DNA of 36,574 nt from Escherichia coli. GTDB taxonomy: Bacteria; Pseudomonadota; Gammaproteobacteria; Enterobacterales; Enterobacteriaceae. Positions 1-17,178 of the stretch are shown one piece after another; the stretch's first letter is position 1; each line of letters starts with the position of its first letter. A program made the translations under genes and the position numbers. The stretch is taken from NCBI RefSeq assembly GCF_003334335.1, contig NZ_QOWQ01000043.1, one strand, 5' to 3'. A model generated the notes under the pieces. The model saw nothing but the letters and a program-made list of their open reading frames with translations. It searched no databases and was not told where the DNA came from.

Positions 1-439
<439 letters not shown>

Positions 440-467
<28 letters not shown>

Positions 468-1606
468 ACACCACTGACCGGATCTTTTTCTGTTTTTTCC
501 ATCGGAAGCCAGGACTGTGTTAACTCACAGAAACGATCGATATTAGCTTCACTCTTAGCACTCATTTTTAAGGTCAGCGACTTTTGCTTCTGGCTATAGT
601 TCGCCTCCATTAACTGCAGTTCAGGGTGTTCCAGCAGAAGTGTTTGTAAATGATAGAGCAACGGCACAGCTTCAGGATATTGCTGAGCGAGTTGCTGCTT
701 AAAGTAAAAACGAAAATTGTGGGTGCGTTTGATCTGCGGGAAATAACGTTGCCAGGTTTCTTGCTGTTGTTGCTGAAGTTGATCTTCAATCTTAAGCGTA
801 TGCCAGAGCGCGATGCTCCGGCTGCCAACAAAAGAAAGAATGGCGAGAACGAGACAGCTTACTGCCAGGCGGGCGAGCCATTTTCCCGATTTGCTTACAG
901 TTTTCTGTTTACGAAAAATACCATGCAGCATGTCATAGCGCTGGAATGCAATATCGGCAGAATACAAACTCAGTGATGGTATTTCAGGATGCTGGATAAG
1001 TGGATTGGCCGCTGCAACGCCGTGAGGTACTACACCATAACAAAGCATATTCTCAGGCGGAAAATGGGCAGCAAGATGCTGTAACCAGTGTTCATCCAGT
1101 TCGTTGAAGGCATGTGCGGCACTGCGAATGAGCCAGCTTGTTTGCTGGTTAACCAGAGTCCAGCTATCTACTTCCCAGGGAAGATAGCAGCCATCTGGCA
1201 AAACCCGCGTCACGTTGAGTCCGGCAGTATGTAAACGCTCAAGATAGCGACTGAGTTTCTCCGACTGAATGCCTATCACCTCGACACTTTCGTTTTGTTT
1301 ATCGACAACCGTCCAGTGCCAGTCCTGGGTGTTGTCGGGTAACGTCTCCTCTGCCAGCCATTGTAATGTTTGTGCGGTGAGTTTGTATTTGGCGTTGGGC
1401 AGCGTGAGGGAACGATATAAAAGGCCCTCTGGTGGGATCAAAAGATGAACATTTCCGGCACCGGGCTGATCGGCCAGCGACTCCAGCGGAAGATCGTCCG
1501 TGAGCGTATGTACCGAAGATACGCTATCTGCGGAGAACGTCATCCATTCCCAATGCTTACGCAGCGTCGAGGAAGAACGTATGACCATCAACGATTCAGG
1601 CATCAC
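440..1606 (-). CDS. gspL: type II secretion protein GspL
   Basis: 388 aa ORF, size and operon position typical of GspL, with a central TM segment (LAVSCLVLAILSFVG). Confidence 0.85.
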
Positions 1607-1617
1607 GATCCTTATGA

Positions 1618-2601
1618 TTAGTAGAGTTGCAGCGTACGCCGATAGATTTGGGCGCTCTGCTGTTTACGGTTGAAAAAAATATGGCTTTGCCATCCCTGGG
1701 ATTGTTCGTCGCTGATACTTTCCGTACTCAGCGTAAAATAGCGGCTATAGGGAAAGAGATGCCTTTTCACCTGAGCAACCAGTGGCTTCACACCGGAGAA
1801 ATCCTGCTGCGCCCAGTAAAGAAATGCATCCGTGGTTAGCCAGCCTTCCCTCGGCCTTTTTTGCAATAAGACCCGAGCGTCAGCATCCGTGATGTTATTG
1901 AGGAATAACGCTCTGAAGAGCGGAATATCGTTCTCCGTTAGCATATTAAGATTGATGCTAAGTTCCGTGGTCGGGAGAACGCAGACATACGGGATAAGCC
2001 GCTGATAGATGTTTTCGGTTATGCCTTTTATCTGACGTAATTCGCCAGTCAGAAAAAGCATCTGATTGGCACTATGCCGGGGCGGCGTCTGGCTTTGGTA
2101 AAAGCTATCTTCTGCGCCGTGAAAGCGTGGTGAGTCATCGACATCAATATAGTCAGCGATTGATTGCACGATCTCATCGGTGTTTCCGCGATCGATACCG
2201 GCGTTAATCAGCAGCGCACTGAATACCTGGGCGGGGAAATCAGGGGAAGCCAGCGGGTCGTCAGAGATTTTTGCTAACGCATTGAGATTAAAACAGTGCT
2301 GGGCATCGCGTAACTGCCACTTCACTGTATTGCCATCTTCCAGCTGCAACTGTTGTGGCTGTGCCCAGTACTGCTGCAACGTGGTCTGTCTGTCGTTATC
2401 TTTAACGTCCTGGGTGAGGCTGGCAAGCGCAAGTTTCTCCGCCAGTTCAATATCATATTGCCGTTGCAGATGATGGTTTACCTGGCGGGTTCGCTGAAGC
2501 TGGCTGTGAAAACTGAGCGTCATGTCTGCTGCCAGAGCAGCCATGAGCGCCAGTAACATGAGTACAATGAGCAGCGCGACGCCGCGTTGTTCATTATTCA
2601 T
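1618..2601 (-). CDS. gspK: minor pseudopilin GspK
   Basis: 327 aa. N-terminal QRGVALLIVLMLLALM prepilin-like hydrophobic segment. Overlaps gspJ by 8 nt. Confidence 0.88.
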   Translation of the reverse strand: MNNEQRGVALLIVLMLLALMAALAADMTLSFHSQLQRTRQVNHHLQRQYDIELAEKLALASLTQDVKDNDRQTTLQQYWAQPQQLQLEDGNTVKWQLRDAQHCFNLNALAKISDDPLASPDFPAQVFSALLINAGIDRGNTDEIVQSIADYIDVDDSPRFHGAEDSFYQSQTPPRHSANQMLFLTGELRQIKGITENIYQRLIPYVCVLPTTELSINLNMLTENDIPLFRALFLNNITDADARVLLQKRPREGWLTTDAFLYWAQQDFSGVKPLVAQVKRHLFPYSRYFTLSTESISDEQSQGWQSHIFFNRKQQSAQIYRRTLQLY

Positions 2602-3181
2602 GGTTATTATTCCCGGCCTGCGTCTGAGCTGGCGACTCTTCTCTCGCTAACTGCTCAGGTAATGCAAAACGGCGCTGTAACCCCCCATATTGCTGAGTCT
2701 GCAGATGTAACGTGACTGAGAGAGGAAGTTCCTGGCTTTCCCCGCTGTTACTTTCCAGAAGAAAGCTCTCGACATGTTCCAGCATCGCCTGGGCGGGTTG
2801 ATCCTTCCTGCCATCCACAGAAGTACGAACAGCACGGTAGAGCGTATGATTTCGCAGATACCAGTGAACAGTGAGTAAGGTTTGTGCTTCACTGAGAGGA
2901 GCCAGCGGATCGCGACTTTGCGTGGTAAAAATAGCTTCTTCACCCAACACCATGATTTTGTCCGTACTCCGATTCCTCCGGGCGACCAGTTGCAGGAGAT
3001 CGTTATCAAGAATGGTGATGGTGCGCTGTAGCTGATTGAACTGCTGGATTTCTTTCTGTGAGCGTTGATGCAACTCGGAAGCTTGCGAAAAAATCATAAA
3101 CGCCAGCACGCTAAGCATTGAGAAAATCGCCAGCGCCGCCATGACCTCCAGCAATGTGAAACCCTGCTGGCGATTAATCAT
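2594..3181 (-). CDS. gspJ: minor pseudopilin GspJ
   Basis: 195 aa. N-terminal [16 protein letters not shown] prepilin motif (G-F cleavage site, Glu at +5). Confidence 0.9.
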
Positions 3182-3551
3182 CTTGTGCCTGCCCGGATTT
3201 ATTATCGATGCTTTGATAACGCGTAAGCGAGGTTGTCTGACCGCTGGGTAATGTCACCGTTATGGTGCGTTCCAGAAGCGTGCCGTCTTTGCTTGAGTGG
3301 ATATCGCTGCGCCAGTTCCACTCTTCGCCATTTATTAACTCTTTGCCAGAACTGGACGTGTTTTCCTCGCCGAATGAATCTTGTGACTGAAGCTGGTTAT
3401 CCGCTATCCACAATGCCAGCGTCTCGTTACGCATTCGCTCGATGGCATTTCGTTGCCCTTGCATACTGCTCATTAAAGTCAGAGCAACAGCGGTGAAAAT
3501 ACTCATCGCCAGTAAGACTTCAAGCAGTGTCATCCCTGATTGTTTGTTCAT
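3174..3551 (-). CDS. gspI: minor pseudopilin GspI
   Basis: Start chosen at internal Met ([19 protein letters not shown]) giving 125 aa and an ATGA overlap with the gspH stop. The ORF track begins 13 codons upstream at 3590. Confidence 0.85.
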
Positions 3552-4057
3552 GGGCGGGTATCTCTGGCGAGCGTTTGATCCAGGGGCCATGAGCCTGAAC
3601 AGACTAACGTCAGGAGCGGCTCACCGGTCCCGGCGTTAGCCATCAACAAAGAGAAGGGCGTGATTTGTCCGTCGGCCAGAATCACAACCTGTGGCTGGTT
3701 GCTGTCATCAGGTTTAAATGGCTGAAGATGAATTGAGAGTTCTTCATCCCAGTCATTTTGGCTCTCGTCTGCGGCATCTTCTTGTAATGGAACCCAGCGC
3801 CAGGCTGATGGTGTTTTGCCCGGTACCATAATGCGCCATGCTGAATCAGAGAAATGGATACCGACAGGCTGACCACTGAGCGTGGCGCGGTCGATGGCTA
3901 ATTCAAGTGCAGCGGTAAACCGCGCCGCTGTTTCGCGCGCACGAGTGCTGGCGACATCCTCCCGGCCATATGTGAAGAGCACCACGCTTGCCGTGATAGC
4001 GACCAGCGCCAGCACCAGCATCATCTCCAGCAGGGTAAACCCGCGTTGCTGATTCAT
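3548..4057 (-). CDS. gspH: minor pseudopilin GspH
   Basis: 169 aa. N-terminal [19 protein letters not shown] prepilin motif. Confidence 0.9.
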
Positions 4058-4064
4058 CGCTGAC

Positions 4065-4502
4065 TTACTTTTTCTTCTTGCTCAAACCCCAGTTGGTGAT
4101 GTCGTCCTCGGTTCCCATTTCACCATCGGGCCCTGCTGAAAGCAGATCGTATGCACCATGTTCACCAGGATTAACGAGGACATAATCATTGCCCCAGGGA
4201 TCGGCAGGCAGACGCTTGATATAACCTTCCTTGTTATAGTTTGCGGCCAGCGGTGGCAGTGTCGGCGCTTCTACTAAGGATTCAAGCCCCTGATTTGTGG
4301 TTGGATAGTGATGATTGTCGAGTTTGTACATATCAAGGGCGTTTTCCAGCGCCACAATATCGCTGACGGCTTTTTGCTTATCCGCCTTTTCTTTATTGCC
4401 CATTAGGTTAGGAACCACCAGGCTGGCAAGTACGCCGATAATGACGATCACCACCATAATTTCCAGTAATGTAAAACCGCGTTGCTTATCCGTTGCGCGC
4501 AT
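4065..4502 (-). CDS. gspG: major pseudopilin GspG
   Basis: 145 aa. N-terminal [21 protein letters not shown], a canonical type IV pilin-like signal. Confidence 0.93.
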   Translation of the reverse strand: MRATDKQRGFTLLEIMVVIVIIGVLASLVVPNLMGNKEKADKQKAVSDIVALENALDMYKLDNHHYPTTNQGLESLVEAPTLPPLAANYNKEGYIKRLPADPWGNDYVLVNPGEHGAYDLLSAGPDGEMGTEDDITNWGLSKKKK

Positions 4503-4511
4503 ATGCTTTCC

Positions 4512-5708
4512 TTAATTAATCATTGAGTTAAGTTGAAGAAGAGGTTGGAGTACCGACACGACAATAAACAGGACGATCAGTGCCATCGTAATAATGAGTG
4601 CTGGCTCGAAGATGGAGAGCGTTAAGGCGATCCGATTTTGTTGGAGTGTCTCCTGGTTATCTGCGGCTCTGACCATTAATGTGCCGAGCTGCCCGCTTTT
4701 TTCGCCAGAGGCCACCATGTAGAGCATCATCGGCGGGAAAATTGCGGTTTGTTCCAGCGAAAGATGAATGCTGTTACCCTGGCGAACGTTCTCTGCCGCA
4801 TTTGCCAGACGCTGGCGAATTTCGAGGTTGTTGAGGCTTTCGGTGGACAAATTCATCCCATCCAGCAGAGGGACGCCGCTGGATTGCAAAATACTTAAAG
4901 TGCGGAGATAGCGTGCGCTGTTAATGGCGCAAATCAGCGGGCCGATGAGCGCAACGCGCAGCAACATGGCATGAAAACGGTGGCGGTTATTGCCGCGTTT
5001 TAACCAGAGCCAGAAACCTACAGCGACAATAAACACTGTCGCTAATAATGTCGGGCCGGTACGTTGCAACGTGTCGCTCAGACCTAAAAGAATGCGTGTA
5101 CTCAGCGGCAGTTGCTGCTTCATATGCACGAACTGTTCGGTAATTTTGGGCACGACAGCAGTGAGGAGAATAATCACGACCCCAATCGCCACCGTAGTGA
5201 GCATACAGGGGTAGATCAGTGACTGAATGAGCTTGCTGCGGATTTTCTGCCGGTTTTCATTGTAATCAGCCAGCTTTTCCAACACCGGGGCCAGCAGCCC
5301 GCTCTTTTCGCCCGCTTTTACCAGGGTACGATAGAGCGAATCGAAAAGCGTGGGAAAATGCTGTAATGCATCGGAAAGGGGATGCCCTTCAAGGATGGCG
5401 CTGCGTACCTGATTTAACACGTCACCCAGTCGTTTATTACTGCTTTGTTGACCGATTACGGCAAGGCTCTCTTCCAGGGGTAATGCCGCTGCGCTTAAGG
5501 TTGCCAACTGCCGGGTGAAAAGCGTCAGTTCACTATGGCTGATCCTCGGGCGACGTGTTTTTACTCCCGAACTTTTTTGGGGGCGAATATCCAGCAGGAA
5601 AAGCCCTTCTTCACGCAGCCGCAGTCGTGCCTGACGTTCATCGTTAGCATCAATGATCCCTTGCAATTTTTGACCATCCTGGGTCATGGCGCGATAGCGA
5701 TAATTCAT
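4512..5708 (-). CDS. gspF: type II secretion inner-membrane platform protein GspF
   Basis: 398 aa polytopic membrane protein, size and position typical of GspF. Confidence 0.9.
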
Positions 5709-7186
5709 GCTTCGCTCTCCAGCGTGGCACTGGCGACGCGCATAACCTCATCCCAGGAGGTGTCACCGCTTATCACTTTTTGCAGGCCATTTTTGATTAA
5801 GGCCTTGTGTTGTTGCCGGACTAGTCGCTCCAGTGCTTGTTCATCCACATTTTCATGAATAGCGGCCCGTAATTCCGGCGTCACCACCATCATTTCGTGG
5901 ATCGCCATGCGCCCCTGATAGCCGGATTGATGGCAATGAGGGCAGCCTACGGGAGTGCCAATTGTTGTCACCGCGAGCTGATGATATTTAAACATCTGCG
6001 CTTGTTGGGGTGATACGGGCGTGAATTGTCGGCATTGCGGACACAGGCGACGAACCAGACGTTGCGCGATAATCCCTGCCAGGGAAGACGAAAGCAGGAA
6101 TGATTCGACGCCCATGTCGCGGAGCCGGGTCACTGCGCCTGATGCACTGTTAGTGTGGAGTGTTGAGAGTACCAGATGGCCGGTGAGCGAGGCCTGAACC
6201 GCAATCTGCGCGGTTTCTGTATCACGAATTTCCCCCACCATGACGACATCCGGGTCCTGGCGAAGTATGGCGCGCAGGCCGCGAGCGAAAGACATATCCA
6301 CACGGGTATTCACCTGCGTTTGCCCAATGCCTTCCAGCTCATATTCCACGGGATCTTCTACCGTCAGAATATTGCGGCCGGGAGTATTCAGCGCCGAAAG
6401 GATGGCGTAGAGCGTGGTGCTTTTACCGGAGCCTGTCGGCCCTGTCACCAGGATAATACCGTGCGGAAGCTGAATGAGATTTTCTAAATCCTGCTTATCC
6501 GCTGCCGTCATCCCCAGGTTGTTCAATGAAAGCTGGAGGCTGTTTTTATCCAGCAGGCGGAGTACGGCGCGTTCACCATAGATGGACGGCAGTGTGGATA
6601 CGCGGACATCTATGTTACGTCGCCCGATACGCAAACTAATTCTTCCATCCTGTGGAATACGTTTTTCGGCGATATCAAGACGAGCCATGACCTTAATTCG
6701 GGAGATAAGCAGTGCCGCCAGTTTTTTGTTTGGCTGTAAAATTGTCCGCAAAACGCCGTCGATGCGAAAACGGATCGACATTGTTTTTTCATAGGTTTCA
6801 ATGTGGATATCAGAGGCGGTTTCTTTGATGGCCTCACTCAAAATCGCATTGATCAAGCGGATAACCGGTGCCGCTGAATCTTCATTCAGGAGATCTTCAT
6901 TTGCGGGCATCTCTTCCGAAAGCGAGAGAAGATCGACGGATTGATCGATATCCTGCGCAATCTGTTGCGACTCACCGGTATTCTGATGGAATACCGCTTC
7001 CAGCCGAGCTTCAAAATCAGCCTGTGACAAGCTGGTCATGGTCTGGCACTGGCCAACCTGACGTTGAATATCGAGTAACCGCTCGAATGGCGTATCGGCG
7101 AGATAAATAATCTCGCCCTCTGAATAGAGATAACCAATTCGTTGTGCCAGCGCCCAACTGGCGGGGTACGGTGAGTGAATTCTCAT
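5705..7186 (-). CDS. gspE: type II secretion ATPase GspE
   Basis: 493 aa. Walker [11 protein letters not shown]-terminal tetracysteine motif (CPQC ... CPHC). ATGA overlap with gspF. Confidence 0.95.
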
Positions 7187-7195
7187 ATGAATGCC

Positions 7196-9127
7196 TCACC
7201 GTGACGATGGCGCAGGGGCGTGACTGTTGAACGTGTTTTCATCCAGCACCGGCAAATCTTCCGAGCCAACCAGCGCTTTTGATTTCCCGTCGATCCGCTG
7301 TTGTTGCTCCTGACGGTAACGGGTGTATTTCTCTTTTGACAGTGAGCGATAAACATCATCGTCACGGATAATCGTCGGACGGATAAATACCATCAGGTTG
7401 CGTTTAGCGCGCTCGGTGGAGGTATAGCGGAAGAGTTGCCCCACTAAAGGAATATCGCCAAGCAGAGGAACCTTTGACACTTGCTCTTTAGAAAAATCAT
7501 CCAGCAATCCGCCCAGGACCACCGTTTCACCGGTTTTGACCAGCACGGCGTTTTGAATAGTACGGGTATTAAACGTCGGGCCGAGCGTCGAGTTAGAGGA
7601 AGAGTCAACGCTGGAGACTTCCTGCTCTATTTCGAGCAACACCGCGTCGCCTTCATTGACCTGCGGAGTAACTTTGAGTTTTGTCCCCACCGTTTTGCGT
7701 TCGACGGTATTAAAGACGTTATCCCCTGAAGTGGTCTGTGACCCGGATAGCACCGGCACATCCTGCCCCACGTTGAAGGACGCGAGTTTATTATCCAGCG
7801 TTACGATGCTTGGGGTGGCGAGGATGTCATTTTTATTGTTACTGGCCAGCGCGGTAAGCAGTACTCCCCAGTCGCCATTGAAGAAGCCTGCGGCCATGCC
7901 ATTGTAGGCGCTAAACATATCCCAGGCAGGATTCGCGCTGGTGATCCCACCATTCTTTTTATAATCAGCCACACCTTGCGCAGCGTTAAAAATCGGTAAT
8001 CCGGTATTGGTAAATTGCTGTGCGCCAACGTTTTTATTCGCCCATTGCACGCCGAGGTTTAGTCCATTTCCATCCTGAACTTCAACGATGATTGCCTCAA
8101 CCAGCACCTGTGCACGGCGAATGTCCAGACGCGCAATTACCGTGGCGAGTTTTTCCTGGACGGACTGGTCAGCGGTAATGGCGACGTTATCCATCGCGCC
8201 AGAAGAGGAGGGCTTACGCGCATTCCCTTTTTCATCTTTCAGCTTTTCGGAAACACCGGTTAGCACTTCCACCAGATTCGTGGCTTTAGCATATTTCAGG
8301 TAATAAACCCGGGTATTTCCTTCCTCGCTCTCTTCGACATCAAGGCTTTTCAGTAATGAAGTGATGCGCTGGCGTGCTTTTTCCGGTCCACTGATGATAA
8401 GAGAGTTGGTTCGCTTATCCGCCACAATCTTCGCGGAGAGGAGGGCTGGCATCTGGCTTTTACCGTGGCTTTCGCTGATTAATTGATTAAGAATCTCGGC
8501 GAGATCTTCCGCTGACGCATATTCCAGATGAATAATTTGCTGCTTCTCTGTGCCGATGACATCAACGCGCTTTATGACTTCAATCAGTTTATTAATGGTG
8601 GAGGCACGACCGGTCAGAATAAGAACGTTGGAGGGTTCATAATGCACAACATTACCGACGCTACCCGCATCCATCATCTGGCGGAGCAGGGGGGCCAGGT
8701 CACGAGCAGGAACGTTCTCAAGCGGTACAATTCGGGTGACCAACTCATCACCTACGCCTGGACGAGAACTGTCAGCAATCATCCCTGGCGATGTTTTTAC
8801 ATTAGCTGAGCGAACCACTTTCAGAAAACCATTGTCCAGCGTGATCACGGAATAACCGTAAAGATCAAGAATACTTAAAAAGAACTGGTAGTACTCCTGT
8901 TGGCTAAACGTATCATTACTGCGTACGGAAATGGTTCCCTGTACCGAAGGGTCGATCAGGATCGTTTTGCCAAGATGCTGCCCCACTATTTCCACGAACT
9001 GGCGGATATCGGCGTTATTGAAGTTCGCGCCGTATTGTTCGTTCTCAGCGTGTCCTGCACAAGGCATGAGTAGTGCTGCCAGCAAGCAGCAGGTGATTTT
9101 ATTGAGTCCTTTCATGACGCAGTCCAT
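7196..9127 (-). CDS. gspD: type II secretion outer-membrane secretin GspD
   Basis: 643 aa ORF with conserved secretin C-terminal region ([14 protein letters not shown]). Signal peptide probably begins at the internal [23 protein letters not shown], so the true start may be 12 nt downstream of the ORF-track start. Confidence 0.9.
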
Positions 9128-9914
9128 TCATTCCTGTAAGTTCCCCGACGGAAACATTTATCAAGCGGGGTACGCCGTTGCGACGAATTGTAAACTGAGC
9201 ACTTTGTTGAGTTAGCAGTAAACTTAATGCCTGTGAAACCTCATCAGGGTGGGTCAGCGAAAGATTATTGATCCTGAGGGCGATATCCCCTGGTTGTAGC
9301 AAGCTGGTGGTAAATGCATTGAGGCCCTTACGAGGGTTCAATCGAAGCCCGTATATCTGTTCTCCATCACGTATAGGCGTGGCGATAATATAATCAGCGA
9401 GTACATTTTGACTTTCTGAATCAGGCTGCTTGATGATGTCAGGTAGCCCTGGATGGAGAGTTACTTTTTCGTAATGCCCGTGAGTTTCAAACACAACGCT
9501 GGTTTTATTTATTTTTCTAATAAACGTTCCCGGCGCTGACTCAAGGGCTTCGTTGAGGGAGTATCGCTTTTGTTCGCTCCCCTCATTAATTAAGACAAAA
9601 GAAGTCTCATCATTCGATGTGAGTACAATGCCATTAAGCGCTATAGAGAGCTTAGGTGTTTCCTGATTAACTGCCACGGGATTTGCATCTTTTACCCCAG
9701 CATGATTTTCGTTACGCCATAAAGCGGCAAGGCTGAAATCAGACTGAAATGCGTTTGTTGGTTGATTAATGATCTGTCCATTTTTAACTATAGTTGTATG
9801 GAAATAATTCACATTAAAAATAATCGACCCTATGCTTATAAATATAATCAATATATTGATGGCAGCATCTTTATTATGATTCGCCAGATGGAAGGGGAAA
9901 CGTAGTGTGGGCAC
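9099..9914 (-). CDS. gspC: type II secretion protein GspC
   Basis: 271 aa, N-terminal TM segment, first gene of the minus-strand operon. 3' end overlaps the gspD ORF by up to 29 nt. Confidence 0.85.

Positions 9915-12553: not shown

Positions 12554-14949
<2,396 letters not shown>

Positions 14950-15249: not shown

Positions 15250-17178
<1,929 letters not shown>

Follow-up and report, generated by a model that had tools for sequence, protein, structure and literature searches.

Short gene overlaps in the gspC-M type II secretion operon of a K-12-like Escherichia coli: ordinary operon packing that may couple translation

The 36,574-nucleotide (nt) stretch of Escherichia coli DNA analysed here (the window; contig NZ_QOWQ01000043.1 of assembly GCF_003334335.1) carries the gspC-M genes, the cryptic chitinase-type type II secretion operon of K-12-like E. 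coli, in which consecutive genes repeatedly overlap by a few nucleotides. We consider it very probable that these short overlaps (-4 and -8 nt; negative spacings are overlaps, positive spacings gaps) and very short gaps (+7 to +14 nt) are the commonest packing of E. coli operons, enriched for heteromeric complexes, that gspM starts at position 443 and gspD most probably at 9115, that the gspC/gspD junction is not indicative of coupling, and that the operon is damaged in this strain. In other words, the overlaps are real but ordinary: they represent the known, already annotated packing of operons for multi-protein machines and no departure from it.

The gsp operon and its junctions

The window is a piece of K-12-like chromosome. 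Compared by blastn with E. coli K-12 MG1655 (NC_000913.3, 3,425,000-3,468,000), it is 99.98-99.99% identical over 36.5 kb and aligns in two blocks, window positions 76-8180 at 99.99% and 8172-36574 at 99.98%. The genes gspC-M lie on the minus strand, and beyond them follow the divergent gspAB genes, the S10, spc and alpha ribosomal operons and the trkA-to-aroE region. This identity, the gene order C-D-E-F-G-H-I-J-K-L-M and the adjoining divergent gspAB and S10 operon identify the genes as the E. coli gspC-M operon (type II secretion system alpha, T2SS-alpha), which we take from the K-12 literature to be a single operon; gaps of at most 14 nt would leave no room for a terminator plus a promoter. 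RefSeq features mapped onto the window have intact reading frames for all genes except gspM (Table 1).

The junctions listed in an initial annotation of this DNA, which had stressed the overlaps and drawn translational coupling from them, were all found in the sequence, with the exception of one motif outside the gsp operon. Spacings between -8 and +6 nt, a class defined for co-directional neighbours, are found at E/F, H/I and L/M (-4 each) and at I/J and J/K (-8 each). Outside that class lie C/D (-17) and the four junctions without overlap, namely D/E and F/G (+9 each), G/H (+7) and K/L (+14). The C/D junction also lies beyond positions 440-5708, to which the initial annotation had assigned the overlaps. 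Junction coordinates agree with RefSeq MG1655, and junction distances are identical in the PGAP annotation of three divergent E. coli lineages.

Overlaps occur at six of the ten gsp junctions and at 5/41 of the other co-directional junctions of the window (Fisher p=0.0036), or at 5/35 when only pairs at most 50 nt apart are considered (p=0.007 against gsp). Genome-wide, 707 of 2,987 unidirectional E. coli pairs (24%) are spaced at -8 to +6 nt (Huber et al. 2023, PMC10666635). Against this background the full K-12 operon has 6/11 junctions in the class (binomial p=0.027), and 9/11 in a class extended to -8..+10 (p=0.0003). The most frequent spacings in E. coli are, in order, -4, -1 and -8, spacings of +9 to +12 form another peak, and heteromeric-complex genes account for 30.4% of short-distance pairs versus 6.8% of pairs separated by more than 20 nt (PMC10666635). 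The enrichment of overlaps in gsp is real but modest, and it is typical of operons for heteromeric complexes.

Table 1. Features of the window discussed in the text. Positions are those of the window.
Feature	Position	Strand	Remarks
IS100 (IS21 family), right end	1..75		last istB bases and terminal repeat, inserted into gspM; assigned by sequence identity
gspM, truncated	54..443	-	first ~122 codons native, then 6-7 codons from IS100; 129 aa vs 153 aa in MG1655
gspL/gspM overlap	440..443	-	ATGA, 4 nt; in-frame ATG 467 would make the overlap 28 nt
gspL	440..1603	-	387 aa, ATG 1603; AAGGA in 14-nt gap after gspK
gspK	1618..2601	-	327 aa
gspJ/gspK overlap	2594..2601	-	ATGAATAA, 8 nt
gspJ	2594..3181	-	195 aa
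gspI/gspJ overlap	3174..3181	-	ATGATTAA, 8 nt
gspI	3174..3551	-	125 aa, ATG 3551
gspH/gspI overlap	3548..3551	-	ATGA, 4 nt; no Shine-Dalgarno upstream
gspH	3548..4057	-	169 aa; 7 nt after gspG stop
gspG, major pseudopilin	4065..4502	-	145 aa; separate start, AAGGA in 9-nt gap
gspF	4512..5708	-	398 aa
gspE/gspF overlap	5705..5708	-	ATGA, 4 nt
gspE	5705..7186	-	493 aa; 9-nt gap after gspD
gspD secretin	7196..9115	-	639 aa vs 650 aa in MG1655; likeliest start ATG 9115 (MKGLNK...)
gspD 33-nt in-frame deletion junction	8172..8180	-	relative to MG1655; between two short ATTACCGC(C/T)GA(T/C) direct repeats
gspC/gspD overlap	9099..9115	-	17 nt from ATG 9115, 29 nt from ATG 9127; gspC stop 9101-9099
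gspC	9099..9914	-	271 aa, GTG start
rplD/rplW overlap	13808..13811	+	ATGA
rplP/rpmC	16731..16735	+	TAATG, 1-nt overlap at 16733
rpmC/rpsQ	16922..16926	+	TAATG, 1-nt overlap at 16924
aroE/yrdB overlap	35469..35472	+	4 nt, GTGA (GTG start)

Conservation of the junctions in related loci

Tight spacing at the same junctions recurs in related type II secretion loci. A GspG scan of one genome per species gave, among the matches listed, 80 loci in which the order of genes from C to M is kept, from about 30 genera, including Enterobacter, Citrobacter, Leclercia, Klebsiella, Pectobacterium, Dickeya, Serratia, Aeromonas, Shewanella and Psychromonas; all counts of loci below refer to this list. The closest comparators in it are of the Enterobacter, Citrobacter and Leclercia types, at about 70-79% GspG identity, and none of them is an Escherichia locus. 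Within each locus, genes were placed by tblastn, stop codons were found and in-frame start candidates were listed. A start picker based on the Shine-Dalgarno (SD) sequence mis-calls some junctions and at H/I often took a downstream ATG at +31 to +40, and two picking rules, together with a statistic recording whether a candidate start is present, were used instead of a single number.

A candidate start at -4 or -1 is present in 58/70 loci at J/K and likewise at L/M, in 49/72 at I/J, 43/69 at D/E, 42/74 at H/I, 34/74 at G/H and 24/71 at K/L. At E/F it is found in 28/73, and 43 more loci have a candidate within -8..+6 (71/73 together). The counts fall to 4/78 at F/G and 2/58 at C/D, and the chance expectation is about 0.1, a rough estimate inferred rather than computed as a null (one frame in three, then either TGA as the stop with any base but C before it or a TG directly after the stop). 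No F/G overlap was called in any of 79 loci under either picking rule, and C/D spacing ranges from -80 to +134. Junctions J/K, L/M, I/J, H/I, E/F and D/E are mostly at -4, at -1 or otherwise tight, which F/G and C/D are not. Tightness is thus confined to certain junctions and is kept over about 30 genera, with the gspG start and C/D as the exceptions.

Translational coupling and its alternatives

We propose that, upon transcription, ribosomes ending an upstream gsp gene would re-initiate at the overlapping or abutting start of the next gene. In addition, or instead, they may open local mRNA structure for new ribosomes. Synthesis of partner proteins would be tied together in this way for E-F, for the minor pseudopilins H-I-J-K and for L-M, with the major pseudopilin gene gspG keeping its own start and a ribosome-binding site in the gap before it. 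These groups match assemblies of the secretion machine, namely the GspK-GspI-GspJ tip complex, the GspL-GspM pair and the GspE-GspF-GspL platform.

The claim of the initial annotation that the overlaps imply coupling stands in part. Junctions at -4 and -8 belong to a class with measured coupling and are tight in the 80 loci; overlap alone is no proof, and the "up to 29 nt" given for C/D is not evidence of coupling. Coupling in E. coli has been measured at -4 and -1 spacings; it is strongly distance dependent and falls sharply with distance (PMC10666635). A 2025 review places peak efficiency between -4 and +3 and states that longer overlaps cut coupling more than gaps of equal length do (PMC12548453); as summarised in that review, one systematic study, by Tian and Salis, saw no coupling at -25 nt. 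Coupling at E/F, H/I, I/J, J/K and L/M is therefore a reasonable inference from spacing and conservation. It may possibly extend to G/H (+7), D/E (+9) and F/G (+9). At gspC/gspD, where the spacing lies between -17 and -29, we regard it as unlikely, because efficiency falls with longer overlap and an overlap of 17-29 nt is too long and variable to indicate coupling.

Several observations weigh against this interpretation. The genes gspF, gspJ, gspK and gspM have good SD sequences of their own (anti-SD duplexes between -4.3 and -6.5 kcal/mol, with spacers in the usable range), so each of them could be initiated independently. The start-site supplements of INRI-seq and TRAINSPOTTER contain no gsp entries, as the K-12 operon is silenced by H-NS under standard conditions and is not expressed unless H-NS is removed (PMC2649431). 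The calling of starts for the 80 loci is a heuristic that carries noise, and the two picking rules disagree at some junctions. As for the start assigned to gspD rather than coupling, neither of its two candidate ATGs has a well-placed SD sequence, the upstream one (9127) has an AGGA 4 nt ahead of it, and both are conserved in all E. coli examined, so that 9127 stays a candidate.

How coupling would operate is a separate question. Upstream ribosomes might melt structure that hides a downstream start and so admit fresh ribosomes, with no re-initiation involved. The predicted cost of opening the region from -15 to +6 is 18.8 kcal/mol at gspE (start 7186) and 12.7 kcal/mol at gspF (5708), against 3.6-7.3 kcal/mol at the other annotated gsp starts, values computed without a shuffle control or covariation test. 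Such costly start regions would fit the unfolding model, and the field regards both models as open (PMC12548453). However, the opening cost is low at the SD-less starts of gspH and gspI, where unfolding would not explain initiation, and we consider unfolding in place of re-initiation a somewhat doubtful account of the operon.

A second alternative is that the overlaps have no coupling function at all and are a neutral by-product of genome compaction and of drift in stop and start codons, with de novo initiation at embedded ribosome-binding sites. The SD sequences of gspF, gspJ, gspK and gspM noted above would serve such initiation, the overlap at any one junction shifts in length from taxon to taxon (-4, -8, -14, -17, -20), and C/D varies over the wide range already described. 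Against neutral drift stand the tightness of specific junctions over about 30 genera while F/G and C/D are loose, and the case of gspH and gspI, which are essentially without an SD sequence (-1.5 and -2.9 kcal/mol, respectively) yet start 7 nt after, or overlap, the upstream stop. These SD-poor starts would fit re-initiation by ribosomes leaving the upstream gene, and we judge the purely neutral explanation rather unlikely.

The same contrast among start sites raises a wider possibility, which we put forward only tentatively and which may well not hold. Type II secretion operons could share a conserved translation architecture in which gspG is always started separately, from a ribosome-binding site of its own, and minor pseudopilins start at overlapping or abutting sites that are often poor in SD sequence, gspH especially. 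It is hinted at by the lack of any called F/G overlap (0/79 loci), by the J/K candidate in 58/70 and by the difference in SD usage between gspH and gspG: an SD sequence of -4.4 kcal/mol or better precedes gspH in 28% of the 80 loci, gspG in 82% and gspF in 87%. Were this true, minor pseudopilin output would be a fixed fraction of the ribosomes terminating upstream, and the minor-to-major and I:J:K ratios would be hard-wired.

The weight of these observations hardly extends past annotation hygiene: the RefSeq starts, gspM at the ATGA and gspD at the 17-nt overlap, are backed by comparative sequence. The cross-species junction pattern also illustrates neatly how short overlaps go together with heteromeric complexes, as is already known, and it could help in designing synthetic operons for type II secretion.

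Start codons of gspM and gspD

The initial annotation had left two starts to be decided by experiment, 467 or 443 for gspM and 9127 or 9115 for gspD. In K-12 both gspM ATGs are open, 467 at -28 and 443 at -4. In Enterobacter, Citrobacter, Leclercia, Silvania, Lelliottia and Huaxiibacter, the junction reads ...GGGAAAtaTAAATGA...; because a TAA in frame with gspM immediately precedes the ATG, the ATGA start is the only possible one there. An ATG at -28 is found only in K-12 and in one Brenneria locus among about 70 related loci. Position 443 is preceded by the ribosome-binding site UAAGGAA (anti-SD duplex -6.1 kcal/mol, 9-nt spacer), while 467 has no usable SD sequence (-2.8 kcal/mol), and RefSeq MG1655 and the PGAP annotation of three divergent E. 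coli lineages all start gspM at the ATGA (443). Comparative sequence thus strongly favours 443, where the ATGA overlap is conserved, and settles the matter as far as sequence can; for neither gene are new experiments required to reach a good answer.

For gspD, both homologue N-termini and existing annotation, RefSeq as well as PGAP, moderately favour 9115, which is most likely the start. In tblastn comparisons homologous secretins align from residue 1-2 of the protein read from 9115, and they begin with M-K/R-K/R followed by a hydrophobic core (for example, MKKFPWACVALTALSL... and MKRLRRIICYLTLL...), with no upstream start codon available. The MDCV extension that 9127 would add is unmatched in homologues and would bring an acidic residue into the n-region of the signal peptide. 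In the gspD frame, the stretch separating the two ATGs shows two amino-acid differences among E. coli lineages (DCV to DSA), and a substitution just past 9115 is synonymous, a pattern that gives a weak hint in favour of 9115 from very few sites. Population variation otherwise does not discriminate among starts, as all four alternative ATGs are conserved in E. coli lineages down to 97% identity. A better ribosome-binding site at 9127 was considered and failed a check of spacing, since the strongest duplex is found 14 nt ahead of this ATG and the closer AGGA is set off from it by a spacer of only 4 nt.

Both gspD candidates fall within the predicted cleaved signal peptide, whose cleavage separates ...CAGHA from ENEQ. 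The mature protein would be identical from either, and N-terminal proteomics, which the initial annotation had suggested, cannot decide between them. Although 467 and 9127 are the first in-frame ATGs of their open reading frames and are conserved in the E. coli lineages examined, the longer forms they would give, with overlaps of 28 nt for gspM and 29 nt for gspD, are very improbable in view of the stop before the ATGA start of gspM in many relatives, the non-synonymously variable MDCV extension and the starts in use by RefSeq and PGAP.

Two further starts of the operon were considered. For gspI, an in-frame ATG upstream at 3590 was rejected; it would give a prepilin leader of 19 residues, and the short leader from 3551 matches the operon's other pseudopilins. 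The GTG start of gspC (9914) is without an SD sequence (+0.2 kcal/mol), has an AT-rich leader and has no other in-frame start nearby.

Damage to the operon in this strain

The gsp components are not all intact in this strain, as gspM is cut by the insertion sequence IS100 and gspD has a 33-nt in-frame deletion. Window positions 1-76 are 100% identical to the right end of IS100 (L002 13387-13462), matches to this end are annotated as istB of IS100kyp, and homology to MG1655 and gspM begins at 76. By protein comparison, the truncated gspM frame ends in ...TTAQVSTTDEK and a stop codon, where K-12 reads ...TTAQVTYGIVIEDLQ.... The gspM frame of 129 or 137 amino acids, which looks like an annotated gene, is in fact a truncated fusion, and gspO has been displaced out of the window.

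In other E. coli, strain 536 (L084 19363-19390) and several enterotoxigenic E. coli isolates from pigs, IS100 lies at or beside the 3' part of gspM, at another site or in another orientation. This suggests that the 3' part of gspM may be a recurrent spot for IS100 insertion.

The deletion in gspD removes 11 codons (EQTNSLVITAD, residues 317-327). A 161-nt query across the junction has 15 full-length matches among the 16 E. coli genomes listed, and in every one it spans 194 nt; all of these carry the 33 nt, which indicates that the deletion is rare or private. We predict that it likely impairs the secretin. Because gspM is truncated by IS100 and gspD carries this deletion, the gsp operon is decaying in this strain.

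Other junctions in the window

Outside the gsp operon, the initial annotation had named TAATG or ATGA junctions at rplD/rplW, rplP/rpmC, rpmC/rpsQ and aroE/yrdB. The last is the motif excepted above, a small error, as the sequence there reads GTGA. A further co-directional overlap, 29 nt between smf (dprA) and smg on the plus strand (33028-33056), was absent from that list. Genes on opposite strands also overlap at their convergent 3' ends, arfA/mscL by 4 nt (27058-27061) and yrdB/yrdA by 25 nt (35702-35726).

Comparison with known systems

The gsp junctions resemble the coupled overlapping pairs for which termination-reinitiation has been described (Huber et al. 2019, 2023; Brown and Wade 2025). 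They share with them the ATGA overlap (-4), the -8 overlaps, gaps of about +9 and the enrichment in heteromeric complexes. The two differ in that the dependence of downstream on upstream translation is only predicted for the gsp pairs, and in that gspC/gspD, at -17 or -29, lies outside the efficient range.

A second parallel is offered by the type IV pili of Vibrio cholerae, whose fimT-pilW-pilX-pilV genes encode a homologous set of minor pilins or pseudopilins and partly overlap. In that operon the authors take coupling to fix stoichiometry (PMC13249403). The minor-pilin operon serves another machine, and coupling there is assumed rather than measured, as in gsp.

The closest known system is the cryptic gspC-O operon of E. 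coli K-12 itself (T2SS-alpha, secretion of the chitinase ChiA; b3324-b3335). The copy in the window differs from it in the interruption of gspM by IS100 after codon ~122, in the position of gspO beyond the window and in the 11 codons missing from gspD. It has in common with the K-12 operon 99.98% nucleotide identity, the gene order, the junction distances and the annotated starts.

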